From positions 25,394 through 89,393 of the forward strand of contig NZ_JMCB01000003.1 in assembly GCF_000737315.1 (NCBI RefSeq): 64,000 nucleotides of DNA, given 5' to 3'. This DNA comes from Hyalangium minutum (lineage in GTDB: Bacteria > Myxococcota > Myxococcia > Myxococcales > Myxococcaceae). The position numbers and the translations under genes are program-made. The notes beneath the pieces were generated by a model that did no database searches, was not told the origin of the DNA, and saw nothing but the letters and a program-made list of their open reading frames with translations. Of this stretch, positions 9,757-61,892 are shown piece after piece. Positions within the stretch are counted from its first letter, which is position 1. Every line of letters starts with the position of its first letter.

Positions 9757-10515
9757 TCAGCCCGGAGTCACGCGCCCGCCAATCTCCGGGAAGCGCTCAT
9801 ACGCGCGCAAGAGCGCCTCCAGGTGCGCGGGGTTGTCGAGGTCGAGCGGCGTCTCCGTAAGCCGAACGACCCACCCGCCCGTTGCAGTGCGCCGCGCCCG
9901 AGAGAGCAAATCCGCATCGCGGGCAGGGTCGGGGAACCCGATGGCTTGTGCAGCGGCTGCCGACCAGTAGTTCAGCCACCCGAGGTGATGAGGAATCGCT
10001 GGCAAGCGAATGTGCTGGGGGAGGTTGAGCGCTGGGAGCCTCCGGGGCGGGACATGCGGCTGATCCATCGAGTGGCGAATTTGTTTCGCCATCTCCGGCG
10101 CCACGCCGTCCGGCAACATGCGCCCCCAGAACGCGCGTGCGCCTTCCGCCACGCCTTCCAGCACATCCGCCGCCGCTGCGATGCTGGCCGCATCCAGCGG
10201 CAGCTCTGCGTGGACTTCAAATTGGGACTGGCCGCCCGCGCTGAGGCGCGCAGGTCTTCCCCACCCCGTCACCGTCACGGGGTAGCTCTCGTCGCCGTTG
10301 CACAGCAGAGGGAGCTTCCCGCGCGCGCTCGCCTCAGCGAGCCACCCATCGCGTTGCGGCAACGCGATGGGTCGCCCCGCCTTTGACAGCTCCCATTCCA
10401 AGCGCACACCGGGGAGCGCCCGTTCGATTCCGTGGACGACTGCGAGCGTGCGACCGTCGTCGCCCACAAGCGCAGGCGCGTAGACGATGAGGATCAGGGT
10501 TCTCTGCTGGGTCAT
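9757..10515 (-). CDS. Hypothetical protein; candidate immunity protein for the upstream lipoprotein
   Basis: A coding-like ORF whose start overlaps the stop of the upstream gene in an ATGA arrangement. No motif was recognised. Confidence 0.55.
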   Translation of the reverse strand: MTQQRTLILIVYAPALVGDDGRTLAVVHGIERALPGVRLEWELSKAGRPIALPQRDGWLAEASARGKLPLLCNGDESYPVTVTGWGRPARLSAGGQSQFEVHAELPLDAASIAAAADVLEGVAEGARAFWGRMLPDGVAPEMAKQIRHSMDQPHVPPRRLPALNLPQHIRLPAIPHHLGWLNYWSAAAAQAIGFPDPARDADLLSRARRTATGGWVVRLTETPLDLDNPAHLEALLRAYERFPEIGGRVTPG

Positions 10516-11225
10516 CGCTTGCACCCCGTGACGACAATGTTGAGGGTGAAATCCCGCTCGAGCAACGCGTTCTTGTGCTCTTGGGTGCTCACCCCAACGA
10601 CAAAGCCATAGCCACATGCCTCCGCTTTGTCTCGCTCTTCCTGCAACAACGGCACTTGCTCCAGAATCGTCTGCCGCCGGATGAAGGCGTTGTACGTGTC
10701 AAATCGATGGGTCTTGATCTCCCACAGCACACGCACGCCGACTTGCAGCGCATCAAAGCGCTTGCCGTCAACGAGTACGTCATTGCCGGGGTAGCGGTTC
10801 GGCGGGAACTGATCGGCGCACTGGTTATGCGGGTCATCTTCGCCCGCGTGCGGCACTGGGATGGGCTCGCACTCTGGGCGGCGGCGCTCCGCCGTCACCG
10901 GGGCAGGCGGGTCCCTCCTGTTCGCACTGGACCTCTTTGGTGTGGCGTTCGCCTCCGGTTCCTGCGAGGCCCGAGGCGCGTCTCCGGCCCAAAGTCCCGG
11001 CTCCCGGGTGGGCGGCAACACGCGTTTGTGCGGGCTCGGTGGCAGGGGCTGGGGGCGAACCTGCCCTGGCTGCCCGGGGGTGGGCAGGCCCGTGCCGGGC
11101 ACGGCGGGTGGGCGCACAGGCGCCCAAGCGTAGGTCTCAGGCGCCTCTTGAGAGGTGGCGCACCCAGCGACGACGACGGCAACGGCAATGGCTTGGCGGA
11201 GTGGGCTGCAAGTTCGGAAGCTCAT
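10512..11225 (-). CDS. Lipoprotein with a C-terminal PD-(D/E)xK-like (restriction-endonuclease-fold) domain; putative polymorphic toxin
   Basis: Signal peptide plus lipobox 'AVAVVVAGC', a Pro-rich linker, then 'GKRFDALQVGVRVLWEIKT', which fits a D...E-x-K nuclease motif. Confidence 0.6.
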   Translation of the reverse strand: MSFRTCSPLRQAIAVAVVVAGCATSQEAPETYAWAPVRPPAVPGTGLPTPGQPGQVRPQPLPPSPHKRVLPPTREPGLWAGDAPRASQEPEANATPKRSSANRRDPPAPVTAERRRPECEPIPVPHAGEDDPHNQCADQFPPNRYPGNDVLVDGKRFDALQVGVRVLWEIKTHRFDTYNAFIRRQTILEQVPLLQEERDKAEACGYGFVVGVSTQEHKNALLERDFTLNIVVTGCKR

Positions 11226-11266
11226 TCCACGTTCTTTTATCGAAGAGGGGCGGTGCGGGAACGAGG

Positions 11267-12736
11267 TCAGGGTTCTCCGGACGTGGGTGAACGTGGCGCA
11301 TCGAACGTCGCGCGGATGCACTTGCCGTCGTACTCGTAAGCACCCGCACCGCAGGGCGGGTCCTTCTTCGAGATGAACCAGCAGGCCCCCAGGGCCTCGA
11401 GTTCATAGTCAGTATCGCAGGGCGGCTTCTTCTGCCCCGGCTGCGGAGCTTTGGGCATCGGAAGCCCCACCACGGAAGTCGCAGAAAGCACTGGAGGCGC
11501 TTGCACCACCGACAAGAGGGCCTCCTCCCCCACGCCCGCGTCCGGTGCATCCATCGGCGGCACGTGATGCTCCTCCGTAATGGGAAGAGGCACAGGCTCC
11601 GGTGAGTTTCCGCCATGCCGGAACTCCGTCACTGCGAACACCAAGAGCCCGCCTGCCACGCTCGCAGTGGCCCATGAGAGCCAGAGCGGAAAGGTGTTGC
11701 GGAGGGCAGGGCGTTCGCGCTCCGTCGAGGGCCGTGCACTGCCCCTCTTTCTGGAGTGATTCGAAGGCGTGAGCTTGCGAGGAACCTCGTGCTCCGTGGG
11801 GACGGCTGCCGAAGTCTGGACAATGAGGGCATCCACCCGCCGGTCTGTTTGGTTTGCGGCCCGTTCCAGCGCCCGGACGATCTGCGCAGTGGTGCCGCGG
11901 TCCCGCGGATCCTCCGCCAGCAGGCGGAGAATGGTGCCCTCCAACTCCGGCGCGACTGCCGCGAACTCGCTGGGGCGCAGCAGCTTGCGTGGCTCCTCGG
12001 CGCGAGTCTCGGAGACAGGAGGAGGATAGCTTCCGGTCACCAGCCGGTACGCCGTCACCCCCAAGGCATACAGGTCATCTGAAGGGCGCGCTTCCCACCG
12101 GGCCTCGAGATCCTTGCGGTACTTCCACATGAAGCGCAGCAGTTCAGGCGCGCGGTAGGGCGTGGTGCCCGGCGGCACGAGGGTGTCGGTGAGGGCCCGA
12201 GCCTCCGGGAACCACGCTGCGCCGAAGTCAAGCAGCACCGCCCGCCCCTCTGGGGTGACGCGGATGTTGTCGCCTTTGACATCCCGGTGGATCACCCCTC
12301 GGGCATGCAGGGCCTCCAGGGCGCGGGCCACCGGCGCCAGCACCCGCAGCACCTCCCGGTTGGAGCGCGGCTTCTGGCGGAACCACTCGTAGAGGGTGGT
12401 GCCATCCACCCACTCCATCACGATAAACGGGTAGCTATGGCCATCCGGTGAGGTCCAGCTCCCGAGCTCGTAGAAGCGCGGAACACTGGGGTGCTGAATC
12501 AGCTGGAGGATGTGCGCCTCTCGCTCGAAGCGCGGGTCGTCTGCCTGTTTGGCCACCTTCAGGGCCACGGGAGGAGCCGAGGGATCATCGGCTCGCCGGG
12601 CCCGGAACACCACGCCATAGCTCCCGGAGTCGACGCGCTGCAGGAGGAGCCACGGGCCCAGGGTCGAACCCGCCGCCAGCACCTGGGACTTCACGAGGCC
12701 CACCACGTCATCACTCAAGAGAACTCCTCCAGCCAA
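11267..12736 (-). CDS. Ser/Thr protein kinase (TM segment and Cys-containing C-terminal domain)
   Basis: 'GSYGVVFRA', 'HRDVKGDNI', 'DFGAAW' and 'GTTPYRAPE' are present. A TM segment 'WLSWATASVAGGLLVFAV' and a C-terminal CxxC region follow. Confidence 0.8.
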   Translation of the reverse strand: MAGGVLLSDDVVGLVKSQVLAAGSTLGPWLLLQRVDSGSYGVVFRARRADDPSAPPVALKVAKQADDPRFEREAHILQLIQHPSVPRFYELGSWTSPDGHSYPFIVMEWVDGTTLYEWFRQKPRSNREVLRVLAPVARALEALHARGVIHRDVKGDNIRVTPEGRAVLLDFGAAWFPEARALTDTLVPPGTTPYRAPELLRFMWKYRKDLEARWEARPSDDLYALGVTAYRLVTGSYPPPVSETRAEEPRKLLRPSEFAAVAPELEGTILRLLAEDPRDRGTTAQIVRALERAANQTDRRVDALIVQTSAAVPTEHEVPRKLTPSNHSRKRGSARPSTERERPALRNTFPLWLSWATASVAGGLLVFAVTEFRHGGNSPEPVPLPITEEHHVPPMDAPDAGVGEEALLSVVQAPPVLSATSVVGLPMPKAPQPGQKKPPCDTDYELEALGACWFISKKDPPCGAGAYEYDGKCIRATFDAPRSPTSGEP

Positions 12737-12873
12737 GGCAGAGCGCCGGAAGGAAACCTACCGCATGGGTCTTATGACATAAACCCACTCTGTTGGGTTG
12801 AGGCAGGAGGAGGACTCCGTCGGTCCTTCACTCCGGTGAAGGCGCCTCGCAGGGCTGGTAGGCTGGGGCCGAC

Positions 12874-13230
12874 ATGTCCACGGACTCCGCCACCCAGCCT
12901 GCCGAGCTCACCCCCCGCCAGACGTTCGCCGGCGTCGTTCAACACTCCGCCAGCTTCGTGGCCATCATCGGCATCAGCGTGCTCTTCCTCCCGTGGTTCT
13001 CGGGAGTCTGGGCCCTCGGCGCGAGGATCGGCTTCTGGGGGTCGGTGGCCCTCACCGTGCTCGAATGCATCCACGTCGGCGTGTCAGCCCTCGCGACCGT
13101 TACGCTCAACGCCGCCGGCAAGCCGCGGCCGGGCGAGAGATGGATGGTGGCCTCCAACGCCGTGCAGATCGCAGGAGCGGCCGCAGGCATCGCCCTGGTC
13201 CTCTTCCTGCGCTCCAAGCTCTGGAGCTGA
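12874..13230 (+). CDS. Small hypothetical membrane protein
   Basis: Three hydrophobic segments. No motif. Confidence 0.4.
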   Translation: MSTDSATQPAELTPRQTFAGVVQHSASFVAIIGISVLFLPWFSGVWALGARIGFWGSVALTVLECIHVGVSALATVTLNAAGKPRPGERWMVASNAVQIAGAAAGIALVLFLRSKLWS

Positions 13231-13238
13231 GAGCGCCC

Positions 13239-13535
13239 TCAACCCGTTTTGCGATGAGAGGCGCTCCGCAGGGGAGGGGACTCCGCCGCCGCCCGGGGCT
13301 CTGGCGGCTCCCGGCGCACCGGGGGCTGAGGCTCCGGCGCCGCCACCACCGACAGCGCCGGTTCCTGCGGCGGGTGGAGGAAGAAGCGCACCACGCGATC
13401 GAGGTACTCCTCGACGGAGAGCCCTAGCTTCTTGGCGAGCTCGACGGTGTTGCCATCCACGAGCACTTTGCGCGACGGCGTCCCGGGTTTCGGGGCGGCC
13501 TGCGGAGCTTGAGGCTTCTGGGATTGCATGGGCAT
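13239..13535 (-). CDS. Small hypothetical protein with a Pro-rich tail
   Basis: 'VLVDGNTVELAKKLGLSVEEYLDRVV' looks protein-like. Its position is operonic, downstream of the cheB-like genes. Confidence 0.4.
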   Translation of the reverse strand: MPMQSQKPQAPQAAPKPGTPSRKVLVDGNTVELAKKLGLSVEEYLDRVVRFFLHPPQEPALSVVAAPEPQPPVRREPPEPRAAAESPPLRSASHRKTG

Positions 13536-13627
13536 TCCTCTGTCAGGTGATTGACATAGGAATGCAGCAAGCCATGAAGATGGGCTGTACTACTTTCGGG
13601 GTACGACTCTGCGGCCGCCTGCTCCTT

Positions 13628-14677
13628 TCAGCTTCGATGCACGGGCAGCGTAGGAGGTATCGCCCCCGAGAGCGCTCGCATCGCCGAGGCCAGGGCTTCC
13701 ACCGTGACCGTGGACTCCGCGGCGCCCAGGCGCAGCGCCGCCTGGGGCATGTGAGGGGCGACGCAGCTCTCCGGGGGCTGCACGAACGTGAGCCCGCCCG
13801 CCCGGCGGATGGCCAGCAGCCCCGCCGCTCCATCCGAGCCCGTGCCCGTCAGCACCGCCCCCGCCGCCCGGTTGCCATGCGCCCGCGCCAGCGAGGTCAG
13901 CAGTGCGTCTCCCATCGCCAACTGCCGCCCGTGGATCAGCTCCACCTGCAGCTCCCCCGTCGGGAGCACCTGCAGCTGGTGCCCGTCCGGTGGCAGGTAG
14001 ACGTGGCCCGCCTCGGGCTTCGTGCCCGTGCGCGCCACTTGCAGCTCCAGCGCCGAAGCCGCGCTCAGCCACTGGCGCAGCCCCGAGGTGAAGCCCACCG
14101 ACACGTGCTGGGCGATGAAGAGCGGGTAGGGGAGGCTCGGCGGCAGCAGGGACAGCAACATCGCCAGCGCCGGAGGCCCTCCCGTGGAGGCCACCAGCCC
14201 AAAGCCGTGCACCCGCCCGCTGCGCAGCACCGGCGGCGGTGTGGGGTGGCTCAGCCGCGGCTTGCGGCTCCCCAAGGGAACCTCCGCCATGGTCCGGATC
14301 GTGTGGATCAACTGCTGGCCGAAGCTCGTCAGGCCCTCCCGGCCCGGCGTGGGCTTGGGCATCACCTCCAGGGCTCCGGCCTGCAGCGCCTTGAAGGACA
14401 GCTCCGCGTCCACCGCCCCGGAGATGACGAGGATGCGGCTGGGCGACTCGGCCATGATGCGCTCGGTGGCGTTGATGCCATCCATCCGCGGCATCCGGAC
14501 ATCCAGCGTGACGACGTCTGGGCGGAGCGCCTGCGCCATCGCCACGGCTTCCTTCCCATCGTTCGCGGTGCCCACCACTCGGATGTCCGGGGCCGCCGCC
14601 AGCAGTCCGGTGAACATCCGCAGGATCGTGGGCGAGTCGTCCGCGATGAGAACCTGGACTGGCCTATTCATGAGCAC
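13628..14677 (-). CDS. CheB-like protein-glutamate methylesterase/deamidase response regulator (paralog 1)
   Basis: Receiver domain 'LIADDSP...LDVRMPRMDG...EVMPKP'. Methylesterase motifs 'ASTGGP', 'AQHVSVGFT' and 'GTGSDG' are present, so the Ser/His/Asp triad is intact. Confidence 0.85.
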   Translation of the reverse strand: MLMNRPVQVLIADDSPTILRMFTGLLAAAPDIRVVGTANDGKEAVAMAQALRPDVVTLDVRMPRMDGINATERIMAESPSRILVISGAVDAELSFKALQAGALEVMPKPTPGREGLTSFGQQLIHTIRTMAEVPLGSRKPRLSHPTPPPVLRSGRVHGFGLVASTGGPPALAMLLSLLPPSLPYPLFIAQHVSVGFTSGLRQWLSAASALELQVARTGTKPEAGHVYLPPDGHQLQVLPTGELQVELIHGRQLAMGDALLTSLARAHGNRAAGAVLTGTGSDGAAGLLAIRRAGGLTFVQPPESCVAPHMPQAALRLGAAESTVTVEALASAMRALSGAIPPTLPVHRS

Positions 14678-14841
14678 CTCGGAGGGCCGTCGAGAGCGCT
14701 GCGGAGGGTGAATGAATAGCCTGGATCCACATGGGCGTCCCCCCTACCCAAGTAGAACGATGATCAGGGTCTGGCCGTCGTGACTTCCGTGGCGAAGTGT
14801 GAACCGACCACCACTTGAGCGAGGGCACCTGCCGCCGTGTT

Positions 14842-15894
14842 TCAGTTCCGAACCGCCGGAGTCACGGGCGCCGCGCCCGTGAACGAGCGCATGGCCGCGG
14901 CCAGGGCTTCGAGCGACAGCATCTGATCCGTGGCGCCGCTGCGCAGCGCGGCCTCGGGCATTCCCGGGACGACACAGCTCTCGGGGCTCTGCGCGAAGGT
15001 CCTCCCGCCCGCCTTGCGGATGGCCAGCAGCCCTGCCGCCCCATCCGAGCCCATGCCCGTGAGCACTGCCCCCGCCGCCCGGTCCCCATAGGCCAACGCC
15101 AGCGAGGACAACAGCGTGTCTCCGAGTGAGGCCTTGCCAACGGGGATCGGCTCGACCTGCAGATCCCCCGCGAGTGTGACTTCGAATTGGTGCCCGTCCG
15201 GCGGCAGGTACACGTAGCCGGGCTGAGGCCGCACGCCCGTCTGCGCCACCTCGAGCTGCAGCGAGGACGCCGCGCCCAGCCACTGGCACAGGCCCGCGGT
15301 GAAGCCCACCGACACGTGCTGGGCAATGAAGATCGGATACGGCAGCTGCGGAGGCAGCAGCGACAGCAGGTGGCAGAGCGCCGGAGGTCCTCCCGTGGAG
15401 GCCACCAGCCCAAACCCTGTCACCCGCCCGCCCTGGGGCGCGGGGGCCACCGGGCTCGGAGCCTGCGCGGGGGCCAGCGCCACCTGCCGCTGGCTCACCG
15501 GCAGCTCGGCCATGGTCCGGATGATGTGGATCAGCTTCACCCCGAAGTTGGCCAGCCCTTCCAGGTTGGGGCGCGGCTTGGGCATGACCTCCAGCGCCCC
15601 GGCCTGCAGCGCCTTGAAGGACATCTCCGCATCCACCGCCCCCGAGATGACGAGGATGCGGCTGGGGGCCTCGGTCATGATGCGCGAGCTGGCCTCGATG
15701 CCATCCATCCGCGGCATCCGCACGTCCAGGGTGATGACGTCCGGCTGCAGCGTGCGTGCCAGCTCCAGGGCCTCGGCCCCATCCTTCGCCGTGCCCACCA
15801 CTTGGATGTCGGCCGCTGACGACAGCAGCGCCGCGTACATCTTCAACATGGTGGGCGAGTCGTCAGCGATGAGGACCCGGATGGTGGAGCTCAT
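14842..15894 (-). CDS. CheB-like methylesterase response regulator (paralog 2)
   Basis: Receiver domain plus 'ASTGGP', 'AQHVSVGFT' and 'GMGSDG'. Confidence 0.85.
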   Translation of the reverse strand: MSSTIRVLIADDSPTMLKMYAALLSSAADIQVVGTAKDGAEALELARTLQPDVITLDVRMPRMDGIEASSRIMTEAPSRILVISGAVDAEMSFKALQAGALEVMPKPRPNLEGLANFGVKLIHIIRTMAELPVSQRQVALAPAQAPSPVAPAPQGGRVTGFGLVASTGGPPALCHLLSLLPPQLPYPIFIAQHVSVGFTAGLCQWLGAASSLQLEVAQTGVRPQPGYVYLPPDGHQFEVTLAGDLQVEPIPVGKASLGDTLLSSLALAYGDRAAGAVLTGMGSDGAAGLLAIRKAGGRTFAQSPESCVVPGMPEAALRSGATDQMLSLEALAAAMRSFTGAAPVTPAVRN

Positions 15895-15971
15895 GTGTGC
15901 ACCTCGGAGGCAGGGGCGAGACTGCCCCAGAAACCGGATTCACGCCATGCACAGGTGAGCCCCGAAGCCCG

Positions 15972-16997
15972 TCAAGCGCCCGAGGACGACATTCCCTCCA
16001 GCTGGCGGATGATGGTGGCCAGCGCCTCTGGGGACACCTTCGTCTCCGTGGACTTGTTGCGCAGCGCGGCCTCCGGCATCGACGGCACCAGGCACGTCTC
16101 CGGATCCTGGGCGAAGGTGAGCCCGCCCGCGCGCTTGATGGCCATCAGGCCCACCGCGCCCTCCTCGCCCATGCCGCTGAGCACCGCGCCCGCGGCGTGC
16201 TGGCCATAGGCTCGGGACAGGGACGCCAGCAGCAGATCCCCCGAGGGGAACGTGGTGCCCGAGGCCTTCTCGATGACGATCTCGCCCTGGAGCCCCACGC
16301 GCAGGTGGTGGCCATCCGGGGCCAGGTACACGGTGCCCGGCCGAGGCTGCTCCGAGGCGCGAGCAATCTCCACCGGCAGCGGAGACAGCGAGGACAGCCA
16401 GCGGTGCAGGCCCACGGTGAAGCCCGGGGTGATGTGCTGAGCGATGAAGACGGGGTAGGGCAGGCTGCGCGGCAGCAGCCACAGCAGCGAGGCCAGCGCC
16501 GTGGGCCCGCCGATGGACGAGAACAGCCCAAAGCCACCGATGCGCCGGCCCGCGGGCAGCGGCGGCGGGTTGGCGTGGCCCTCACGGCGCTTGGTCACCA
16601 GCGGCACCTCCGCCAGCAACCGGATGGCCGACAGCAGGCGTACACCAAAGCGCGCCACATCCTCGGGAGAGCCCTGCGGCTTGGCGATCACCTCCAGCGC
16701 TCCGGCCTGGAGCGCGCGGAAGGACAGATCCGTGTCCGGGGCGCCGGACACCATGAGGATGCGGCAGGGCGTCTCGGCCATGATGCGCTCGGTGGCGCCC
16801 AGGCCATCCATGCCCGGCATCTGCACGTCCAGGGTGATGACGTCCGGCTTGAGGGAGCGCGCCAGGGCCACGGCCTCCTCGCCGTCGCGCGCAGTCCCCA
16901 CCACGGTCACGTCGGGCTGTGCCGACAGCAGCCGGGTGAGGACCTGGAGCATGGTGGGGGAATCGTCGGTGAGGAGGACTTGGATGGGCTTGCTCAT
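15972..16997 (-). CDS. CheB-like methylesterase response regulator (paralog 3, with the catalytic Asp position replaced by Glu)
   Basis: Receiver domain plus 'FSSIGGP' and 'AQHITPGFT'. The triad Asp motif reads 'GMGEEG' instead of the usual 'GMGxDG'. Confidence 0.8.
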   Translation of the reverse strand: MSKPIQVLLTDDSPTMLQVLTRLLSAQPDVTVVGTARDGEEAVALARSLKPDVITLDVQMPGMDGLGATERIMAETPCRILMVSGAPDTDLSFRALQAGALEVIAKPQGSPEDVARFGVRLLSAIRLLAEVPLVTKRREGHANPPPLPAGRRIGGFGLFSSIGGPTALASLLWLLPRSLPYPVFIAQHITPGFTVGLHRWLSSLSPLPVEIARASEQPRPGTVYLAPDGHHLRVGLQGEIVIEKASGTTFPSGDLLLASLSRAYGQHAAGAVLSGMGEEGAVGLMAIKRAGGLTFAQDPETCLVPSMPEAALRNKSTETKVSPEALATIIRQLEGMSSSGA

Positions 16998-17090
16998 GCG
17001 GTTCTCCGGAACTCTTTTCGGGGGAGGAATCTACCCCATGGGTGGGGTCCTCGCCTACGACCTACCATGTAACAGTGTAACCAACATGTA

Positions 17091-19304
17091 TCACCCGGCC
17101 TTGCGTTTCTTTTCACGCCGGGGACTGGCCTCAGGGGAAGGTGGCGAAGGGGGCAGGGCCGGCCGAGTCGAGGGGAAGGGCGTACCATCCGTGGGGCCGG
17201 TTTCTACCCCCGGTACTTCCGCCGGGAGAGCGGGCAGGCGGATGACGAAGGTGCACCCCTCGCCGGGTTTGCTGTGCACGGCGATGCTCCCCCCGTGATT
17301 CTTGACGATGCGCTGGCAGATGGCCAGCCCCAACCCTGTACCCTTTTCCTTCGTGGTGAAGAAGGGCACGAAGATGTGCTGTTGCTGGTCCAACGGAATC
17401 CCTGGCCCGGTGTCCGAGACGTGAACCTCGACGAACTCGTTGACGGTGCCGCCGCGGAAGTCTCCGAAGCGGTCCTGCTTCACGGTGCCCACGGTGATGC
17501 GCCCGCCCGGAGTCCCAATGGCCTGCACCGCGTTCTGGACCAGGTTGATGAGCACCTGCTTGAGCTGCTCTGCATCTCCGTCCACGCGCGGCGCCGTGAG
17601 GTCCAACTGGACGGCCAGCTCGATCTGCTTGGGCACATCGTTCTGGATGAGGCGCATGGTGCGGGTCACCACCTCATTGAGGTCCGTCTGGCCAAAGTTT
17701 TGCTTCAGCGGCCGAGCGTAGTCCAGGAACGCCGTCACCACGCCATTGAGGCGGTTGACCTCTTCGACGATGACGCCCAGGAACTCGCCGTCCTCGCCCG
17801 GGAGCCGCTTCGGATCCAGGCACTGCGCCGCGCCCTTGATCGCCCCCAGGGGGTTGCGGATCTCGTGCGCCAGGCCCGCCGCCATCTCGCCCAGGGCCGC
17901 CAGGCGGTCGCGCTCGCGGATCTTTTCATACAGCTTGGAGTTCTCCAGCACCGTTGCCAGGCGCTCGGCCACCGTGAGGATGAGGGCGATCTCGTCCGAG
18001 GCGTAGGCCTCCGGCACGCGCTCGTCCCACAGGTTCAGGAAGCCGATCACCCGATCGTTGCCCACCAGCGGCACGGAGATGCCGGACTTCATCTGCAGCA
18101 GCGCGGCGCGCGTGTCCTGCAGGCGCTTGAGCTCGTCCCGGAAGCGCTTGCCCTCGGCCGCGTGCATTCGCAGCGCCGCCAGCCGCGTGTCCACGTTCTC
18201 CAGCAGCACCGCCTTCTGCCCCGAGGCCGCCGCCAGCAGCAGGCCGCGCGCCGCCGCCGTGTCCAGGAAGCCCTCGGGCGGAGGGCCGCGTGAGTCCAGC
18301 AGCCGGTAGCCCGGACGATCCTCCGCCATCATGTACACGGAGGTATGGGTGACGCGGCCCGTCTCGTGGAGCGCGTCCAGCACCATCCGCGTCACCTCGG
18401 AGATGTCGATCACCGTGGCCATGCGCGCCCGGAGGTTCCCGAGCACTCGCAGCAACTCGAAGCGCTCGCGGAAGAAGATGGCCACCACCTGCTCGTCCAC
18501 CTTCACGCGCAGGGGCTCCATCAGGATGATGGTGACGAAGGCGGCCACCACCGTGTTGAAGACGAAGAGGCTCGCGTTCTCCTTCACCCACACGGTCAAC
18601 ACCGTGAAGACGGCGGCCAGGATGAAGGCCAGCACCGTCTGCGAGGCGATCTTCCCCAGCAGCTCGTGCAGGTCCATCAGCCGCAGCCGCAGCAGCGTCT
18701 GGGAGAGGAAGAACAGGTACATCGTGGAGAAGATGGGCCCCAGCGGCGGCAGGGGAATGTCGTAGCGCCGGCCCACGAGGTCCACGGCCGCGAGGACGAT
18801 GGTGACGCCTGCGCCCAGGGCCAGGTACATCAGCCGCAGCCGCTCGATGCGCGATTGCTGGCTGCGCACCTGGTTGAGCAGCAAGCTCACCGAAGTCAGC
18901 AGGGTACCGAGCACCCAGACGCTCACCGCCACGCGCGCCCAGTTCTGCTGCGCCAGCGGCGTCACCGCCACCGCCAGCCCGAACACGCCTGAGAGCAGGG
19001 CGAGCCGCCGGCCCTGCATATGGGCCTCTTTGCTGACGCCCAGGAACTCCAGGAAGAAAGAGACGGCTGACAGGGGGACAAGCGAGGCGAACAGGATGGT
19101 GGCGCCCACCGCCGTTCTGGACACCCAGCCGGGCTCGGGGAAGATGCCCGCGAAGAACAGCGCCAGGTAGTACCCCGCCACCGTGAGGGCGAAGACGGAA
19201 TACAGTGTCACCACCCGAGGGCGGCCCGGCCGCAAGAGCATGGCGAGCCCGAGCGCCAGGCCGACGAGGGATGCAAGCAGGGCGCTCTGAGTGCGGATGT
19301 CCAT
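17091..19304 (-). CDS. Membrane sensor histidine kinase (about six N-terminal TM helices, GAF, HisKA, HATPase_c)
   Basis: Multiple N-terminal hydrophobic helices. A GAF-like region is followed by 'LAHEIRNPLGAI' (H-box), then 'DTGPGIP' and 'GTGLGL'. Confidence 0.85.
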   Translation of the reverse strand: MDIRTQSALLASLVGLALGLAMLLRPGRPRVVTLYSVFALTVAGYYLALFFAGIFPEPGWVSRTAVGATILFASLVPLSAVSFFLEFLGVSKEAHMQGRRLALLSGVFGLAVAVTPLAQQNWARVAVSVWVLGTLLTSVSLLLNQVRSQQSRIERLRLMYLALGAGVTIVLAAVDLVGRRYDIPLPPLGPIFSTMYLFFLSQTLLRLRLMDLHELLGKIASQTVLAFILAAVFTVLTVWVKENASLFVFNTVVAAFVTIILMEPLRVKVDEQVVAIFFRERFELLRVLGNLRARMATVIDISEVTRMVLDALHETGRVTHTSVYMMAEDRPGYRLLDSRGPPPEGFLDTAAARGLLLAAASGQKAVLLENVDTRLAALRMHAAEGKRFRDELKRLQDTRAALLQMKSGISVPLVGNDRVIGFLNLWDERVPEAYASDEIALILTVAERLATVLENSKLYEKIRERDRLAALGEMAAGLAHEIRNPLGAIKGAAQCLDPKRLPGEDGEFLGVIVEEVNRLNGVVTAFLDYARPLKQNFGQTDLNEVVTRTMRLIQNDVPKQIELAVQLDLTAPRVDGDAEQLKQVLINLVQNAVQAIGTPGGRITVGTVKQDRFGDFRGGTVNEFVEVHVSDTGPGIPLDQQQHIFVPFFTTKEKGTGLGLAICQRIVKNHGGSIAVHSKPGEGCTFVIRLPALPAEVPGVETGPTDGTPFPSTRPALPPSPPSPEASPRREKKRKAG

Positions 19305-19412
19305 GTTCGGGAGAACAGTCTAACCTGTGTCCACGTCCGGAAATTTTTTGAGTGGTCCCAGTTGTCCTCGGGCGTGCCCGAGCACATCCACCAGGGCTCA
19401 GTGTCCGCCCCC

Positions 19413-21833
19413 ATGAAATCCGCCCTTTCGCTGATTGCCCTCGTTTCTTTCGCGCAGCTGGCCTCGGCCCAGCCGGTGGCCGATGCCCCGGCCACGGCTC
19501 CGCAGCCGCGCACTGACGGCGCGCCGCCCGAGGCGCAGCTGCGTCCCCTCCCGGACACGGAGACGGCACCGCTGCCCCCCGGCTACGTGGAGATCTTCAA
19601 CCCCGCGTTCCCGCTGCCCGTGGTGATGGCGCCTCCCGCCAAGAAGGAGGAGGCCAAGGCAGAGGTTCCGCGCGGCAAGGCCTACGGGCTGGACGAGCTG
19701 ACGCCGTACTTCGCCGCGGGCAAGAAGAAGGAGGCCAAGGCCGCCTTCGACAAGGGCTTCTACCTGAAGGCCCGGGAGCTGCTGCAGGACGAGGGCAACT
19801 CGGCGCCGGTGCGTTACCTGCGGGCGCTGAGCGCGGTGCGCGCGGGAGATGATGTCCGCGCGGCCAGCGAGATGGCCTCCCTGGCGGAGGACTACCCGGC
19901 GCTGCGGGATCGCTGCCTCACGCACGCGGGCATGGCGCTCGAGGATCTGAGCCGCTTCGACGAGGCGGCGAAGCTGCTCGACCAGGTGTCGCAGGACTCG
20001 AAGCTGTACGTGGATGCGCGGCTGGCGCTCGGGCGCGTGCTGCGCAAGAAGAAGGACTACGACGGGGCCATGGCCGCGCTCACGCCGCTGGCGGATCGGC
20101 CCGCGCCGCTGTTCGGCCGCAACGTGGGTGCCGAGGCGCTCATGGCCATCGCCGACATCGCGGTGGAGAAGAAGGATCGCAAGCGCGAGCAGGAGGCGCT
20201 GTGGCGGCTGTGGTCCCTGTACCCGCTCTCGCCGCTGACCAAGCAGGCCGATCGTCGGCTCAAGGGCATCAAGCCCCCGGTGGACGCCCAGGTGGCGCGC
20301 GCCGAGCAGCTCATCGAGCTGCACCGCAACAAGCAGGGCCTCACGGTGCTGGAGCCGCTGCTGACTGCGCTGGCGCTGCCGGATCCGCTCGCCTGCCGCG
20401 CGCACTTCGCCTACGGCAAGGGCCAGCGCAAGGAGCGCAACCACACGAAGGCCATCTCCGTGCTCACGCCGGTGGTGGACAAGTGCCAGGATGCGGATCT
20501 GCTGCCGCGCGCCATGTACGTGCTGGGCTCCTCGCGCTCCATCGTGGACCAGAAGCGTGGCCCGGAGACGTACGAGCGGCTCGCGCGCGAGTTCCCCGGC
20601 CACTCCTTCGCGGACGACGCGCTGTTCTACGCCGCTGACCTGTACGTGAAGACGGATCGGCCGGGGCAGGCCCTGGAGCGGCTCCAGGAGCTGGAGAAGA
20701 ACTATCCGCAGGGCGACTTCCTGGGCGAGGCGCTCTTCAAGGCGTACTGGATTGCACGCACCTCGAAGGTGCCGGACGGCGGGCTGCCCATCCTGGAGCG
20801 CATCGAGAAGCGCTTCGCTGACGCGGACGAGACGTACGACGTGGAGCGGGCCCAGTACTGGCGGGCGCGGACATTCCTGGAGCGCGGCAACAGCAAGGAC
20901 GCCGTGGCCCTCTTCGAGCGGCTCGCGCTGGAGCACCCGGCCACGTACTACGGGCTGATGGCCCGTGCGCAGCTGGGCGAGATGGACAAGGAGCGCTTGG
21001 AGAGCATCGGTCCGCAGCTGGTGTTCACCGCGGAGCGTGCCAGCCCGTGGCCTCTGCACACCGGTCCCGCCATGGAGAAGGATCCGCACTTCCTGGCGGC
21101 CGTGGAGCTGCTGCGCCTGGGCTTCCCCGAGGCCGTGTCCTCCGAGCTGCTCGCCGTCAACCGCAACGGCCTGCCCACCGAGCCCGTGCGGCTCATCGTT
21201 CATCTGCTCTCGATGGCGGGGGACCAGCGCGCGGCGCACGCCGTGGCGCGCGTGTCCCTGCGCAGGGATCTCAGCGGCCGCATCACTCCGGAGACGCGGC
21301 CGGTCTGGGAGATCGCCTATCCGAATGCGTACCGCGAGCTGATCGAGAAGCACACGAAGGAGGCCGGGGTGGAGCCGGATCTCCTGCAGGCGCTAATGCG
21401 CGAGGAGAGCGCGCTGGACCCCAAGGCCCTGTCGTGGGCGGGAGCGCTGGGGCTCACCCAGCTGATGCCCACCACGGCGAAGGCGGTCGCGCAACAGTTG
21501 AAGATCAAGCGCTTCCGCGTGGAGTCCCTGCTGGATCCGGACATGAACATCCGCATCGGCGCGCACCACCTGGGCGAGCTGGTGAAGAAGTTCGGCGGCA
21601 ACGCGCCGTTCGCGGTGGGCAGCTACAACGCCGGCGCCGGAGCGGTGAACCGCTGGCGCTCCGAGCGCAGGGGCATGCCGCTGGATGCGTGGGTGGAAGA
21701 GGTGCCGATCGCGGAGACGCGCGGCTACATCAAGCGCGTGCTGCGCTCCTACAACACCTACCAGCTCCTCTATGGCCGTCCGGCCAAGGCCTCTGCGGTG
21801 AAGTCCGCGGGCCTAGTACCGGGGGCTCGCTAG
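19413..21833 (+). CDS. Soluble lytic murein transglycosylase (Slt70-like; superhelical N-domain plus C-terminal SLT domain)
   Basis: Signal peptide 'MKSALSLIALVSFAQLASA'. The SLT catalytic region reads 'EESALDPKALSWAGALGLTQLMPTTA'. Confidence 0.85.
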   Translation: MKSALSLIALVSFAQLASAQPVADAPATAPQPRTDGAPPEAQLRPLPDTETAPLPPGYVEIFNPAFPLPVVMAPPAKKEEAKAEVPRGKAYGLDELTPYFAAGKKKEAKAAFDKGFYLKARELLQDEGNSAPVRYLRALSAVRAGDDVRAASEMASLAEDYPALRDRCLTHAGMALEDLSRFDEAAKLLDQVSQDSKLYVDARLALGRVLRKKKDYDGAMAALTPLADRPAPLFGRNVGAEALMAIADIAVEKKDRKREQEALWRLWSLYPLSPLTKQADRRLKGIKPPVDAQVARAEQLIELHRNKQGLTVLEPLLTALALPDPLACRAHFAYGKGQRKERNHTKAISVLTPVVDKCQDADLLPRAMYVLGSSRSIVDQKRGPETYERLAREFPGHSFADDALFYAADLYVKTDRPGQALERLQELEKNYPQGDFLGEALFKAYWIARTSKVPDGGLPILERIEKRFADADETYDVERAQYWRARTFLERGNSKDAVALFERLALEHPATYYGLMARAQLGEMDKERLESIGPQLVFTAERASPWPLHTGPAMEKDPHFLAAVELLRLGFPEAVSSELLAVNRNGLPTEPVRLIVHLLSMAGDQRAAHAVARVSLRRDLSGRITPETRPVWEIAYPNAYRELIEKHTKEAGVEPDLLQALMREESALDPKALSWAGALGLTQLMPTTAKAVAQQLKIKRFRVESLLDPDMNIRIGAHHLGELVKKFGGNAPFAVGSYNAGAGAVNRWRSERRGMPLDAWVEEVPIAETRGYIKRVLRSYNTYQLLYGRPAKASAVKSAGLVPGAR

Positions 21834-23261: not shown

Positions 23262-23851
23262 TCGAAAGTGCCGTCCTGGTTCTGAACCGGAACTACCAGC
23301 CTGTCCACGTCACTTCCGTCAAGCGCGCCTTCTCCTTGCTGTACCAGGGCGTGGCCAAGGCCATTGACGACCAGTACCGGCTCTACGAGTTCGCCGACTG
23401 GGCCGCGCTGAGCGCCACCACCGACTGCATCACCACGGTGAACCGCTCCATCCGCGTGCCCCGCGTGCTGGTGCTCTCTGTCTACGAGTACCTCCCCAAG
23501 GGCCGGGTGCGCTTCTCACGTCTCAACATCTACGCGCGCGATCACGACACCTGCCAGTACTGCGGGCGCACCCTGCCTCGCTCGGAGCTGAACCTGGATC
23601 ACGTGCGGCCTCGCTGTGACGGAGGCAAGACGACGTGGGAGAACGTTGTCTGCTCGTGCGTGCCCTGCAACCTGAGGAAGGGCGGGCGCACCCCGGAGCA
23701 AGCAGGGATGAAGCTGCTGCGGAGACCTTTCCGCCCGAAGTGGACGCCGCTGTTCCGCGGAGCCATCCGGCGTGTCACCTACCGTGAGTGGTTGCCCTTC
23801 CTGAGGGTAGAGGACGCCTCTTACTGGAACGTGGAGCTGCTGGACGAGTAG
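23258..23851 (+). CDS. HNH endonuclease
   Basis: 'CQYCG...LDHVRPRCDGGKTTWENVVCSCVPCN' is an HNH zinc-finger motif. The start overlaps the selA stop (ATGA). Confidence 0.8.
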
Positions 23852-23993
23852 CGCGGCCCCGGTCCTCTGGGGCCGAGTGTGGCCGATTTTTCTCCGAGTG
23901 GGTCCCCGAGGGGCACGGATGCGTCCGTGCTCCAGACATCCGGGCCGAGGCTCGCCCCCCATGGCGAGCCCTGCGGCAGGGAAGGGGACACAC

Positions 23994-25646
23994 GTGAAAC
24001 AGAATCGGTTGCTGATGCTGGGCGCGCTCGCGATCGTCTTCAGCCTCGTGGGCTGTGACTGCGGCGGCGGAGATTCGAAGCCTCCCATCGAGGAGCCGGA
24101 CGGCGGTACCACTCCCTCGGATGGGGGAACGGACATCCCCGACGGAGGCCCCGGCTCGGTGTGCCTGGCGCAGGGGGCGGCGTGCAGCCGGACCTCGGGG
24201 GCCCAGTGCTGTAACGGCGTGTGCGGCGCGGACAATGTGTGTCCGGCGCCCAATGAGCTCTGCAAGAGCCCCAACGAGGTCTGCCAGACGGGCGGCGAGT
24301 GCTGCACCAATATCTGCTCGAACGGCAAGTGTGCCTCCAACCTGTGCAAGGACGTGGGCCAGGCCTGCGCCACCGCCGAGGACTGCTGCACCAAGACATG
24401 CACCGGCGGCACGTGTGCGAACGTCCCCGGCAACGTCTCCAGCTGCAAGGTGCTGGGCCAGGCTTGCGCCTCGGGCGCGGAGTGCTGCTCCACCAACTGC
24501 CAGGGCGGCGTGTGCACCCGCGCCTATACCTGCAAGGCCTACGGGGACGTGTGCCTCACGGACGCGGAGTGCTGCGGCCAGTCGTGCTCCTCGCCGGACG
24601 GTGTCACGGCGGGCCGCTGCGAGTTCATCACCGGCGGTGGTGGCGGTGGCTGTCGGCAGGACGGCAACCCGTGCTCGGGTGGCTCCGGGTGCTGCTCGCG
24701 CACCTGCGTGGATCTGGGCTACGGCGCCACGGTCTGCCAGCCCGTGGGGGGCTGCAAGCTCACGGGTAACGCCTGCAACGCGGCCAATGACTGCTGCGGC
24801 GGCGGGACCAACCCCAACGGCTCGGTGACGTGCGCGGGGGGACGGTGCGACAACGGCCAGAGCTGCAACGGCGTGGGCAACATCTGCGGCTCCGGCAAGC
24901 TGCCGGATGGTGGCACCACGGACATCAACGCCTCGCAGAACTGCTGCGACGGCCGCAAGAACGTCTGCAAGGTGGACTCCTCGGGCGTGCCCCGCTGCTT
25001 CGGCGGCGGCAGTACCCAGTGCCCTACGGGCTACACGGGCACCGCGCCGTGCTGCATCAACGATGGCCAGAACTGCCAGTTCTCCGACCAGTGCTGCGGT
25101 GACGCCCTCTGCCTGCCCAACGGCAGCGGCGGGCTGAGCTGCCAGCGGCCCACGTGCTCGCCGGTGGGGGCTCCCTGCACCTCCGAGGCTGGCGGCACCT
25201 CGGCCTGCTGCGCGGGCTCCAGCTGCTTGCCGGTGGACGAGCTCAACTTCGCCTGCCAGGCCCCCCGGCCGCCCACCAGCGGCACGGATGGCGGCACCGG
25301 CGGGACTCCGGACGCGGGGCCGGCGTGTAAGGCCAACGAGACGGCCTGCACCTCGCCCTCGCAGTGCTGCTCGGGCATCTGCACGGGCGGTCTGTGCAAG
25401 CCGCCCGCCCTGTGCCAGCCGCAGAACGGGGCCTGCACCTCGGGGGCGGACTGTTGCCAGGGGCTGCGGTGCGACGTGCCGTCCGGCTCCACGACGGGCA
25501 CCTGCCAGCCGGGCGCCGCATGCTCGGCCAGCGGCCAGGCGTGCTCGCCCTCGGTGGGCTGCTGCTCCGGCCTCAGCTGCGAGACGGCCTCCGGGACCGC
25601 CTGCGACGGCACCTCGGCGTGCCTCTGCATGGTGATCCTCAACTAG
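23994..25646 (+). CDS. Lipoprotein composed of about 15 myxococcal Cys-rich repeats
   Basis: Lipobox 'FSLVGC'. The ~30-aa unit 'C..G..CC...C.GG.C' recurs throughout. The GTG start at 23994 has a 'GGAAGGGGA' SD sequence upstream. Confidence 0.75.
   Translation: MKQNRLLMLGALAIVFSLVGCDCGGGDSKPPIEEPDGGTTPSDGGTDIPDGGPGSVCLAQGAACSRTSGAQCCNGVCGADNVCPAPNELCKSPNEVCQTGGECCTNICSNGKCASNLCKDVGQACATAEDCCTKTCTGGTCANVPGNVSSCKVLGQACASGAECCSTNCQGGVCTRAYTCKAYGDVCLTDAECCGQSCSSPDGVTAGRCEFITGGGGGGCRQDGNPCSGGSGCCSRTCVDLGYGATVCQPVGGCKLTGNACNAANDCCGGGTNPNGSVTCAGGRCDNGQSCNGVGNICGSGKLPDGGTTDINASQNCCDGRKNVCKVDSSGVPRCFGGGSTQCPTGYTGTAPCCINDGQNCQFSDQCCGDALCLPNGSGGLSCQRPTCSPVGAPCTSEAGGTSACCAGSSCLPVDELNFACQAPRPPTSGTDGGTGGTPDAGPACKANETACTSPSQCCSGICTGGLCKPPALCQPQNGACTSGADCCQGLRCDVPSGSTTGTCQPGAACSASGQACSPSVGCCSGLSCETASGTACDGTSACLCMVILN
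24050..25620 (+). repeat. Tandem in-frame repeats encoding Cys-rich modules
   Basis: Periodic 'TGC TGC' / 'GGC GGC' codon patterns recur about every 90 nt. Confidence 0.6.
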
Positions 25647-28358: not shown

Positions 28359-28622
28359 ATGACAGAGGAAGAAAAGGTCAAAGCGATGCGGCTCGCCCGC
28401 GCCATTGCCTCGGACATCTCGCTCTACAACGAGCAGAAGATCATCAAGGGCATTGAGCAGGACAACCTCTTCGAGGTCCTCAAGGACGAGCTCGACGAGG
28501 GGCGTGAGCTCTACAAGAGCCGCGTGAGCGCCGAGATCTTCACGAAGACGAACTTCTTCGAGCGGGCCATCAACGACATCGTCCTGCGCTCCAAGGCGCA
28601 CGTGAAGTCGAAGATTTGGTAG
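28359..28622 (+). CDS. Small conserved hypothetical protein
   Basis: Coding-like 87-aa ORF whose stop overlaps the TTG start of the rluD-like gene. Confidence 0.5.
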   Translation: MTEEEKVKAMRLARAIASDISLYNEQKIIKGIEQDNLFEVLKDELDEGRELYKSRVSAEIFTKTNFFERAINDIVLRSKAHVKSKIW

Positions 28623-29557
28623 CTCCCGAAGCGCGCGAGCACCAGGCCCCGCCCGAGGCCCGTGGCGAGCGGCTGGATCAGCACCTCGCGCGCGCCCATC
28701 CCGATCTCACCCGGTCCCGTCTCCAGGGGCTCATCGAGGCGGGCCACGTCCAGGTGGACGGCCGGCCCGCGAAGGCCTCGCTGCGGCTGCGCGGCGGTGA
28801 GCGGCTCTCCCTCCACATCCCCGCGCCCGTGGCGGCCGTGCCGGTGGCCGAAGCGCTGCCGATCGACGTGCTCCACGAGGATCGGGATCTCGTCGTGGTG
28901 AACAAGGCGGCGGGCATGGTGGTGCACCCGGGGGCGGGGCACGCCTCGGGGACGCTGGTCAACGCGCTGCTGCACCGGGTGAAGGATCTGGCCGGAGTGG
29001 GCGGCGAGCTGCGGCCGGGCATCGTCCACCGGCTCGACAAGGACACCACGGGGTGCCTCGTGGTGGCGAAGAACGAGCGGACGCTCGTGGCGCTGCAGAA
29101 GGCCTTCAAGACGCGCGCGGTGGAGAAGACGTACCTGGCGCTGGTACACGGCCACCCCAAGCCCGAGGGCCGCATCGAGACGCTGTACGGGCGCCACCCG
29201 GTGCACCGGCAGAAGTTCACCGGCAAAGTCAAAGAGGGCAAGCCCGCGATCACGGTGTACCGGACGCGCGAGCTCTTCGAGGGCGCCGCGCTCGTCGAGG
29301 TGGACCTGCTGACGGGCCGCACGCACCAGATCCGCGTGCACCTGGCCGAGGCGGCGCATCCGCTCTTGTGCGATGCGTTGTACGGCGCCGGGCGCAAGGC
29401 GAAGGGGCCAGTGCTCGAGGCCCAGGAGGCGCTGGGGCGCCAGGCGCTGCACGCGTGGCGGCTCGCGTTCACGCACCCGCGGACGGGCAAGGCGCTGAAG
29501 CTGGAGGCGCCGCTGCCCGCGGACTTCGAAGCAGCAATCGCGCGTCTCCGCAATTGA
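28616..29557 (+). CDS. rluD: RluA-family 23S rRNA pseudouridine synthase (RluD-like, with N-terminal S4 domain)
   Basis: S4-like region 'RLDQHLARAHPDLTRSRLQ', and the catalytic motif 'HRLDKDTTGCLVVAKN'. Confidence 0.8.
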   Translation: MVAPEAREHQAPPEARGERLDQHLARAHPDLTRSRLQGLIEAGHVQVDGRPAKASLRLRGGERLSLHIPAPVAAVPVAEALPIDVLHEDRDLVVVNKAAGMVVHPGAGHASGTLVNALLHRVKDLAGVGGELRPGIVHRLDKDTTGCLVVAKNERTLVALQKAFKTRAVEKTYLALVHGHPKPEGRIETLYGRHPVHRQKFTGKVKEGKPAITVYRTRELFEGAALVEVDLLTGRTHQIRVHLAEAAHPLLCDALYGAGRKAKGPVLEAQEALGRQALHAWRLAFTHPRTGKALKLEAPLPADFEAAIARLRN

Positions 29558-29707
29558 ACTCCAGGGCAGGGTGCGTGCTCGCGCGGCGCGTCACTCACCC
29601 CGGGGGAGGAAGGGAGCGTCTCCCCCCAACTATCGGGTCCACATTCACTCCTCGTAAGATTCGCGTGGGCTTCGGAGCTGACGTCGGGCGCCCAGAGATC
29701 TCAAGAC

Positions 29708-30691: not shown

Positions 30692-30804
30692 GCAGGGGCC
30701 GTGCGTTCCATGTTGGTGCACCTCGCCTCAATCTGGAGCGAGCAGGAGATCCAAACTGGACGGGAATTCCCTCGGTTCCGAGCGGCTCCCGTCTGAAACG
30801 GTGC

Positions 30805-30820
30805 AGGCACGCGGCTCGCA
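30805..30820 (+). promoter_or_regulatory. Possible sigma54 (-24/-12) promoter upstream of the MVP-like gene
   Basis: 'AGGCACGcggcTCGCA' against consensus TGGCACG-N4-TTGCA. If used, the coding start would be the GTG at 30857. Confidence 0.25.
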
Positions 30821-30823
30821 TGG

Positions 30824-52261: not shown

Positions 52262-52503
52262 CCAGCCGGATTCTTACTCCCTGGGGCGGATTGGGCGCTG
52301 AAACGTCGGCCATCGTGCGCTCCTGCTGATGGCCGTGAAAAAAGTGCACGGTCCGGGGTACAGCGCACCTTGCCCCTTGGGCATCGGATGTGCACTTGGA
52401 TGCGCCAACGCGGAGCCAAGCGTCGCTGGGACGCTCGGTCTCCTTGGGAGTGCTGATCCTCAGCTTCATCGCGGCTCGCCCCACGGGCCGCACCCGAGTC
52501 TCT

Positions 52504-53325: not shown

Positions 53326-53330
53326 ACACC

Positions 53331-56128: not shown

Positions 56129-56257
56129 GCCTGTCGGTGACGGACGCAGTTCGGAGGAACGGGGTGGGCCGAGGCGTTGGTGCACGCGCCGGGGCCGCCC
56201 CGTTTGCCTGTTCAGCCCCTGAAACCGACAGTGCCCTGTAGGGCGCATTCGTGCGTG

Positions 56258-56273
56258 TTGGCACGGTTGCAGC
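56258..56273 (+). promoter_or_regulatory. Possible internal sigma54-like promoter upstream of the nfsD/gltD-like gene
   Basis: 'TTGGCACGgttgCAGC', with a weak -12 element. Confidence 0.2.
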
Positions 56274-56333
56274 ACTTCTCATTCCAGGAGTGCGCGTCTA
56301 CCTTCGGTCGTCCCTTCGATGGCAGGAGTTCGC

Positions 56334-59909: not shown

Positions 59910-59947
59910 TTCTCACTGACTTCAAGGCAGCTCCAGGGAAGACGACC

Positions 59948-61378: not shown

Positions 61379-61559
61379 CAGGACAAACTACCGGAACGGA
61401 TGGGTACTTTTTTCCACTCCTCGGGCGGGCAGGGTGGCGGGCTCCGGGCAAGTTCCCTACGATCCGAGGCGTTGGGCTTGGACCAACTCCTGCAAGAACC
61501 CACCAGGAACCTCTTCGTGGGTCCGCTGTCTCAACCGATGAAGTGAATGGAGGCTGCAG

Positions 61560-61835: not shown

Positions 61836-61892
61836 CGCCTGAAAGGGGCGCTTCGTTTTCTTGGGTGCGGAAGGGCGGAAGGAACGATCCTC

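Follow-up and report, generated by a model that had tools for sequence, protein, structure and literature searches.

Three tandem CheB-type response regulators behind a conserved orphan-type histidine kinase in Hyalangium minutum: a young, lineage-restricted array with variable active sites

We analyzed a 64,000-nucleotide stretch of the Hyalangium minutum genome (contig NZ_JMCB01000003.1, positions 25,394 to 89,393; hereafter the window, in whose own numbering all coordinates are given). The window encodes a membrane sensor histidine kinase (HK) with a GAF domain, followed head-to-tail on the minus strand by three genes, CheB-a, CheB-b, and CheB-c, each of which combines a response regulator receiver (REC) with a CheB-type methylesterase domain (Table 1). 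Pfam annotation and gene order confirm this arrangement, which had been noted in a preliminary description of the sequence; the interpretation offered there, a signaling module that modifies glutamyl methyl esters or deamidates glutamine outside chemotaxis, is partly supported. The CheB triplet arose recently, by insertion and tandem amplification behind a conserved orphan kinase, and is restricted to one lineage. Judged by its predicted catalytic residues, esterase chemistry is not a conserved property of the module.

The methylesterase domain (CheB_methylest, PF01339) scores 157-168 bits in all three proteins, against a cutoff of 24 (E-values of 1e-46 to 1e-49), and the receiver domain (Response_reg) scores 79-82 bits. 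CheB-b is a 100% match to H. minutum protein P0121, and CheB-c has an alternative GTG start at 14677. The three genes are direct DNA repeats with a spacing of 1.1-1.2 kb and 65-81% identity. The gaps from the kinase to a, from a to b, and from b to c are 93, 77, and ~170 nt, and a promoter and terminator consensus scan found no terminator-like sites on the module strand. An adjacent, co-oriented regulator gene (gaps of 67-93 nt, no terminator) is the arrangement of a classical two-component pair. The same scan returned no sigma-70 matches, a result that is uninformative for a myxobacterium with 68% GC. No Rfam matches were found in the 11-22 kb part of the window. The conserved block ahead of CheB-a may include an internal promoter, to judge from the six-genome alignment. 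Open reading frame (ORF) calling guided by the GC content of third codon positions (GC3) separates the genes cleanly in the module region.

Table 1. Features of the kinase-CheB locus in the window
Feature	Coordinates	Strand	Evidence and remarks
Membrane sensor HK, 737 aa	17091..19304	-	GAF 300-455, HisKA 471-531, HATPase_c 576-692 (Pfam)
HK/CheB-a intergenic region	16998..17090	-	Conserved block in six-genome alignment; GGAG ribosome-binding site
CheB-a, REC + CheB_methylest, 341 aa	15972..16997	-	Pfam; Ser-His-Glu triad; SIGGP and GMGEEG signatures
CheB-b, REC + CheB_methylest, 350 aa	14842..15894	-	Pfam; full Ser-His-Asp triad in H. minutum
CheB-c, REC + CheB_methylest, 347 aa	13628..14671	-	Pfam; full triad in H. 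minutum and closest relatives
TPR-SLT lytic transglycosylase	19362..21833	+	Pfam; divergent from HK
98-aa ORF	13239..13535	-	No Pfam or NCBIfam matches; no homologs in related loci

No other chemotaxis genes are present in the window, as previously noted. Pfam annotation of ~57 ORFs covering the 64 kb found no Hpt, CheW, CheR, or MCPsignal domains. A frame-independent tblastn search with CheA, CheW, CheR, CheY, and a methyl-accepting chemotaxis protein (MCP) from an H. versicolor che cluster matched the three CheB genes; its other matches were all generic REC and HATPase similarities. Within the window, the che-free flanks of the module are thus 13 kb and 45 kb long. No che genes occur within 10 kb on either side of the module in Stigmatella, H. 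rubrum, or the Hyalangium-like locus L090, and the window and the syntenic loci have no CheA-CheW-MCP core of the kind that defines Wsp- or Che3-type pathways. Candidate distant partners, which the preliminary description had proposed to look for, do exist in the genus: Hyalangium genomes have che clusters that are complete (CheA, CheW, CheR, and MCP) and include a CheB of their own (seen in H. versicolor), so targets outside chemotaxis need not be invoked.

The kinase is an orphan-type kinase conserved throughout the Myxococcaceae and Archangiaceae, with orthologs of 63-94% identity at ~85 loci. Its N-terminal third is hydrophobic, and hydropathy and an AlphaFold2 (AF2) model predict eight or nine transmembrane helices instead of the six originally counted. 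The AF2 model of the membrane domain has a pLDDT of 73, and a Foldseek search of the PDB with this domain returned only generic helical-bundle matches (GPCR; E>0.007, TM-score ~0.4). The core has HisKA and HATPase_c domains with the His box HEIRNPL; its closest NCBIfam models are AtoS, ZraS, and NtrB, all scoring under their cutoffs. The DHp region (residues 455-545), which governs partner choice, is ~90-96% identical across all aligned orthologs. Since it is virtually identical with or without CheBs, the kinase apparently did not co-evolve with them. Adaptation of the kinase to the CheBs finds no support elsewhere in the protein either; the CheB-bearing clade has only 5 specific substitutions in 737 residues, none of them in DHp. 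The DHp region is invariant and the type-a receiver nearly so, and there is no variation from which covariation can be read.

We scanned 80 genomic loci with the kinase, as well as individual contigs, by tblastn. Wherever a locus extends far enough upstream of the kinase, a TPR-SLT lytic transglycosylase gene is found there on the opposite strand, and this divergent pair is the truly conserved context of the kinase. CheB genes are found behind the kinase in two groups only: Stigmatella aurantiaca has one copy, and the Hyalangium-like genomes (H. rubrum, two metagenome-assembled genomes, two metagenome contigs, and the window) have three. The kinase-CheB order is kept in at least 7 genomes of this lineage. 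Conservation across the Myxococcales, which had been suggested as a check on the module, was not found: 63 informative loci (those with at least 1.2 kb of sequence downstream of the kinase) have no CheB or other response regulator gene behind it, including loci of Myxococcus, Corallococcus, Pyxidicoccus, Archangium, Cystobacter, and Vitiosangium. Among the kinase orthologs, the adjacency is confined to 7 loci of the Stigmatella/Hyalangium lineage and the window, which is not the distribution of a classical two-component pair.

What follows the kinase elsewhere indicates how the CheBs arrived. Eighteen of the CheB-less loci (Myxococcus, Corallococcus, Pyxidicoccus, and others) have a co-oriented gene for a ~220-aa zinc-ribbon protein (PF13453) downstream of the kinase, usually no more than ~0.1-2 kb away. 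The same gene comes after the CheB(s) in Stigmatella and H. rubrum. The two positions of the zinc-ribbon gene show that a type-a CheB was inserted between it and the kinase in the common ancestor of Stigmatella and Hyalangium. Two tandem duplications in Hyalangium then gave b and c. CheB-a is the ancestral copy, and it is the sole copy in Stigmatella. The zinc-ribbon gene is lost from the H. minutum window; no PF13453 remnant was found in 12700-13700, even at E<100.

The zinc-ribbon protein contains several CxxC pairs (PF13453, Zn_ribbon_TFIIB; for example at 11063-11719 of locus L004 and 12324-12998 of L006) and has no NCBIfam match. Its gene is the ancestral downstream neighbor of the kinase in Myxococcus, Corallococcus, and Pyxidicoccus. 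One kinase, SLT, and zinc-ribbon locus of myxobacterial type, with a kinase 75% identical to that of the window, comes from an assembly titled 'Comamonas sp. KCTC 72670' (BNCN01000021.1), which is probably mislabelled or contaminated.

Some Hyalangium-like loci have a gene for a class I S-adenosylmethionine (SAM)-dependent methyltransferase (249 aa) close to the CheB triplet or convergent with it (11383-12132 on the minus strand of L090 and L091, and 16728-17474 on the minus strand of L006). We considered this gene, found in L090, L091, and H. rubrum, as a consistent partner and rejected it, as the window, Stigmatella, L007, and L008 lack it. Because it stands beside the triplet at some loci only, a separate methylation system would have no regular writer enzyme.

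A neighbor-joining tree of 133 sequences groups a, b, and c in a single 70-sequence clade that branches as (a,(b,c)), separate from but beside the CheBs of che clusters, at ~50% identity. CheB-a is 86-96% identical across Stigmatella and Hyalangium, and the Stigmatella copy is its ortholog (86-87% identity). The closest relatives outside the clade (47-53% identity) are CheBs of che clusters next to sucAB in Corallococcus and H. versicolor, where the gene order is response regulator, response regulator-CheW, CheR, CheW, CheA-response regulator, CheB, MCP. These che-cluster CheBs are probably the evolutionary source of the clade. By name and signature, H. minutum protein P0267 is an ortholog of the H. 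versicolor che-cluster CheB. A library clustered at 50% identity holds ~4,500 CheB-like representatives at E<=1e-30, and P0167 is the only member of the a/b/c clade among the 150 matches listed.

The clade differs from its che-cluster relatives in the receiver as well as in the active site. The alpha-1 helix of the receiver (PTMLQVLTRLLS and similar in a, b, and c) departs from the che-type consensus (PTMVNTMATLLS), and a 3-residue deletion after beta-4 is common to the clade. The che-cluster CheBs share most invariant positions with a, b, and c, but they are invariably Ser-His-Asp and are embedded in a complete che cluster. All three window proteins fall under the NCBIfam curated CheB cutoffs of 293 bits (NF001965) and 342 bits (NF009206), with scores of 251.6 and 260.1 for a, 267.2 and 265.7 for b, and 245.7 and 258.8 for c. 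They nevertheless align over their full length with canonical CheB (Salmonella 1A2O and 6YMZ; E of 1e-47 to 1e-52) and have the same REC-linker-CheB_methylest architecture and phospho-acceptor pocket. In contrast to canonical CheB, they lie outside a che operon, beside a classical HisKA kinase rather than CheA, and the active site is altered in CheB-a and in many b and c orthologs. We found no specific literature on an orphan or HK-linked CheB in myxobacteria, or on a catalytically dead CheB.

The catalytic triad of CheB is Ser164, His190, and Asp286 (PMC3180692). We numbered residues by alignment to Salmonella CheB 1A2O, and CheB-b also to 6YMZ. All three window proteins have Ser164 and His190. 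CheB-a has Glu in place of Asp286 and Ile in place of Thr165, both in 15 of 15 a-type sequences examined, and so lacks the Ser-His-Asp triad that b and c of the window have. Among 32 CheB-b sequences the nucleophile is Ser in 23 and Ala in 9, with Ala in the deeper orthologs; CheB-c has Ala in 23 of 28. The codons are GCC for Ala and TCC for Ser. Ala occupies the basal branches of b and of c alike, with Ser nested close to H. minutum and the two mixed among very close relatives, so residue 164 has switched repeatedly. A 55-nt tract around the nucleophile codon is 91% identical between b and c (~80% elsewhere), which points to short gene conversion as a possible route of the switching. The Ser-His-Asp triad is kept in 148 of 149 diverse CheB representatives and in all 62-63 che-type myxobacterial relatives. 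A fixed Ser-His-Glu variant together with Ser/Ala toggling is unusual in an otherwise invariant family and apparently undescribed. The only other degenerate CheB among the 149 representatives is P0424, an unusually long protein (547 aa) with Ala-Arg-Asp at the triad positions.

Outside the active site, the proteins are well preserved. The acidic pocket (DD), D56, and the Lys of the receiver are kept in all 70 clade members. Of the 49 catalytic-domain positions that are at least 95% invariant in che-type relatives, a keeps 44, b 47, and c 45, and the losses cluster at the active site (S164, T165, P258, T281, D286, and G313). Pairwise dN/dS is 0.01-0.09 for the receiver and 0.13-0.39 for the catalytic domain of CheB-a, 0.17-0.31 for CheB-b, and 0.11-0.44 for CheB-c. 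For comparison, it is 0.10-0.49 for the neighboring kinase and 0.28-0.45 for a genuine che CheB in these GC-rich genomes. The three proteins are under purifying selection, within the range of the kinase and the che CheB, and are not decaying.

The left edge of the module had been placed at 13239, which belongs to the 98-aa ORF. This ORF has no family match or homolog, so the supported unit ends at 13628. Neither it (13535..13239, minus strand) nor the ORF at 12874..13230 (plus strand) is supported as a module gene; we found no families for them and no homologs in related loci. We also considered the 98-aa ORF as a remnant of the zinc-ribbon gene, but no such remnant is detectable. The long plus-strand ORF at 12491..14719 is a shadow ORF. 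The top NCBIfam match of the TPR-SLT protein is the BB0259-type lytic transglycosylase (219 bits, cutoff 234). BB0259 is a Borrelia 'flagellar assembly lytic transglycosylase', and the host here is a non-flagellated myxobacterium.

Farther along, the window encodes a 782-aa bacterial homolog of the eukaryotic Major Vault Protein (30797-33145, plus strand; Pfam MVP_shoulder at 2e-45 and Vault, Vault_2, Vault_3, and Vault_4 repeats). H. minutum (9757-11402, minus strand) and Stigmatella (L004, 18252-19911) each have a DUF5953/DUF6310 gene pair close to the locus, which suggests a two-gene cassette. At 52339-63854 (plus strand), several genes for large TPR proteins precede one for an FHA and TonB_C protein, a series that presumably resembles the Agl/Glt gliding-motility cluster of Myxococcus. 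At 28508-29590, there are overlapping near-full-length ORFs on opposite strands with GC3 of 0.86 and 0.81; the plus-strand ORF encodes an RluA-type pseudouridine synthase, and the antisense ORF is probably a shadow. A 611-aa plus-strand ORF at 23811-25643 (GC3 0.90) has no Pfam match and overlaps two minus-strand ORFs within 24719-25642 (GC3 0.93-0.95).

We tentatively favor, at somewhat less than even confidence, a phosphorylation-controlled accessory branch whose proteins bind, and in some forms modify, MCP-type targets, with the nucleophile-less paralogs acting as non-catalytic regulators or sinks. The triplet is more likely a side branch of known signaling than new signaling chemistry. The three CheBs would be accessory outputs most probably fed by the adjacent kinase, which may also keep an older partner encoded elsewhere. 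They would dock in trans onto MCP-type receptors of ordinary che clusters. Type a, and b and c in H. minutum, may still hydrolyze or deamidate, and the nucleophile-less b and c of most sister species would be non-catalytic binders or competitors and, as further phosphate acceptors, would tune the branch. In this way, what the kinase senses would be coupled to the modification or occupancy of receptors, with no new glutamyl-methyl-ester chemistry.

The adjacent kinase is favored as phosphodonor because of the co-orientation, the short gaps, and the persistence of the arrangement where the kinase is only 76% identical. Nearly all family-invariant positions are retained, which speaks for a ligand of the ancestral kind, namely the MCP adaptation region. 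The distinct alpha-1 helix and the 3-residue deletion of the receiver favor rewiring away from CheA. The proposal that the classical kinase is the cognate one keeps the point that it is the only kinase in the operon, and loses force from the sameness of DHp and from an a-type CheB found elsewhere.

Several observations weigh against an accessory branch fed by this kinase. The donor role is suggested by gene context, and MCPs as targets are predicted from family membership and conservation of the fold. The DHp region is essentially identical in 83 orthologs, whether CheBs are present or not, and the 78 other aligned orthologs that share it include none known to carry CheBs. An orphan a-type CheB (72% identical) on a metagenomic myxobacterial contig (L088, 10001-11023) lies between a Mut7-C gene and ileS, with no kinase nearby. 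It has the same Ser-His-Glu signature and nearly the same receiver alpha-1 helix as the a-type proteins, even though no HK is adjacent. The conserved block upstream of CheB-a could be a promoter of its own. The triads of b and c are complete in H. minutum itself, so a pseudoenzyme reading applies to the clade and not demonstrably to this genome. Ser-His-Glu triads can also be active in other hydrolases.

In an alternative explanation, which we consider rather unlikely, the position is incidental. The triplet would then consist of extra CheBs of ordinary chemosensory systems, phosphorylated by one of the several possible CheAs of the genome and acting on its MCPs, which landed in a permissive site and were amplified there. 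The 63 loci in which the kinase has no CheBs and an unchanged DHp region, the orphan a-type CheB far from any kinase, and the che-cluster identity of the nearest relatives all fit this explanation. There is also a precedent, which counts against a dedicated kinase-CheB pair as well: the M. xanthus orphan regulator EpsW, encoded elsewhere, is a substrate of the CheA-type kinase DifE (PMC4671073). An incidental position accounts less well for the receivers, whose alpha-1 helix is unlike the che-type consensus and which share the deletion across the clade, for scores under the curated CheB cutoffs in all three proteins, and for an adjacency that outlasts considerable divergence of the kinase.

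It is improbable, in our estimate, that the kinase and the CheBs work as a self-contained module on proteins other than MCPs, which they would demethylate or deamidate, with the kinase itself, envelope proteins, or motility proteins as possible substrates. The long che-free flanks are consistent with such a module, the active-site remodeling unique in the family could reflect a new substrate, and a methyltransferase gene stands beside the triplet in some loci. Chemotaxis-type modification parts are likewise wired to classical sensor kinases in Bacillus cereus, where RsbM carries out CheR-type methylation of the non-MCP sensor kinase RsbK (PMC4574943), and in Azospirillum, where histidine kinases contain CheB and CheR domains (PMC4618731). 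The parallels are partial. RsbK/RsbM has a methyltransferase and no cognate methylesterase, whereas the window has three REC-CheBs and no linked methyltransferase; the Azospirillum domains are fused within one kinase, whereas those of the window are in separate REC-CheB proteins. Against a self-contained module stand the inconsistent methyltransferase linkage, the dispensable nucleophile in most b and c orthologs, the retention of 44-47 of the 49 invariant positions, which indicates the ancestral kind of ligand, and the absence of the CheBs from most myxobacteria that have the same kinase. Of the preliminary interpretation, the gene context is supported, with no che cluster and a kept gene order, and the chemistry is not, since the esterase and deamidase residues are not conserved. 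We give little credence to the idea that a classical membrane HK here drives a small family of CheB-derived effectors outside chemotaxis, one with a fixed Ser-His-Glu triad and two flipping between active and nucleophile-dead forms within short evolutionary spans, which read or erase glutamyl modifications on non-MCP proteins; if true, it would add a new eraser or reader layer to two-component signaling.

That the three proteins are pure phosphate sinks, with receivers draining HK or CheA phosphate to sharpen or damp a main pathway and CheB domains as decaying passengers, is very doubtful: receivers intact everywhere, repeated loss of the nucleophile, the added sink capacity of extra copies, and the precedent of the phosphate-sink response regulator DifD of M. 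xanthus (PMC4671073) are in its favor, but no genome has a shortened catalytic domain, purifying selection on these domains is comparable to that on functional genes, nearly all family-invariant positions outside the active site are retained, and Glu286 is fixed in all a-type proteins, which looks like a selected change and not decay. A sink role for the nucleophile-less forms of b and c, as one function of the accessory branch, is plausible by analogy with DifD and with extra CheYs elsewhere, which are also additional receivers that share a kinase with a main output. Known phosphate sinks, however, are single-domain CheY-like proteins, whereas a, b, and c retain a conserved CheB-type domain under selection.

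CheB is treated as a dedicated and invariant chemotaxis enzyme, and the clade described here departs from that pattern while its fold remains under selection. The effect is limited to one small myxobacterial lineage, and new chemistry is not demonstrated. If the three proteins bind receptors under phosphorylation control, some of them without catalysis, they would be the first pseudoenzymes derived from CheB and would give two-component signals a concrete path to chemoreceptor arrays. The natural Ser/Ala variants, together with the one-copy genomes of Stigmatella and the three-copy genomes of Hyalangium, make the case experimentally tractable.

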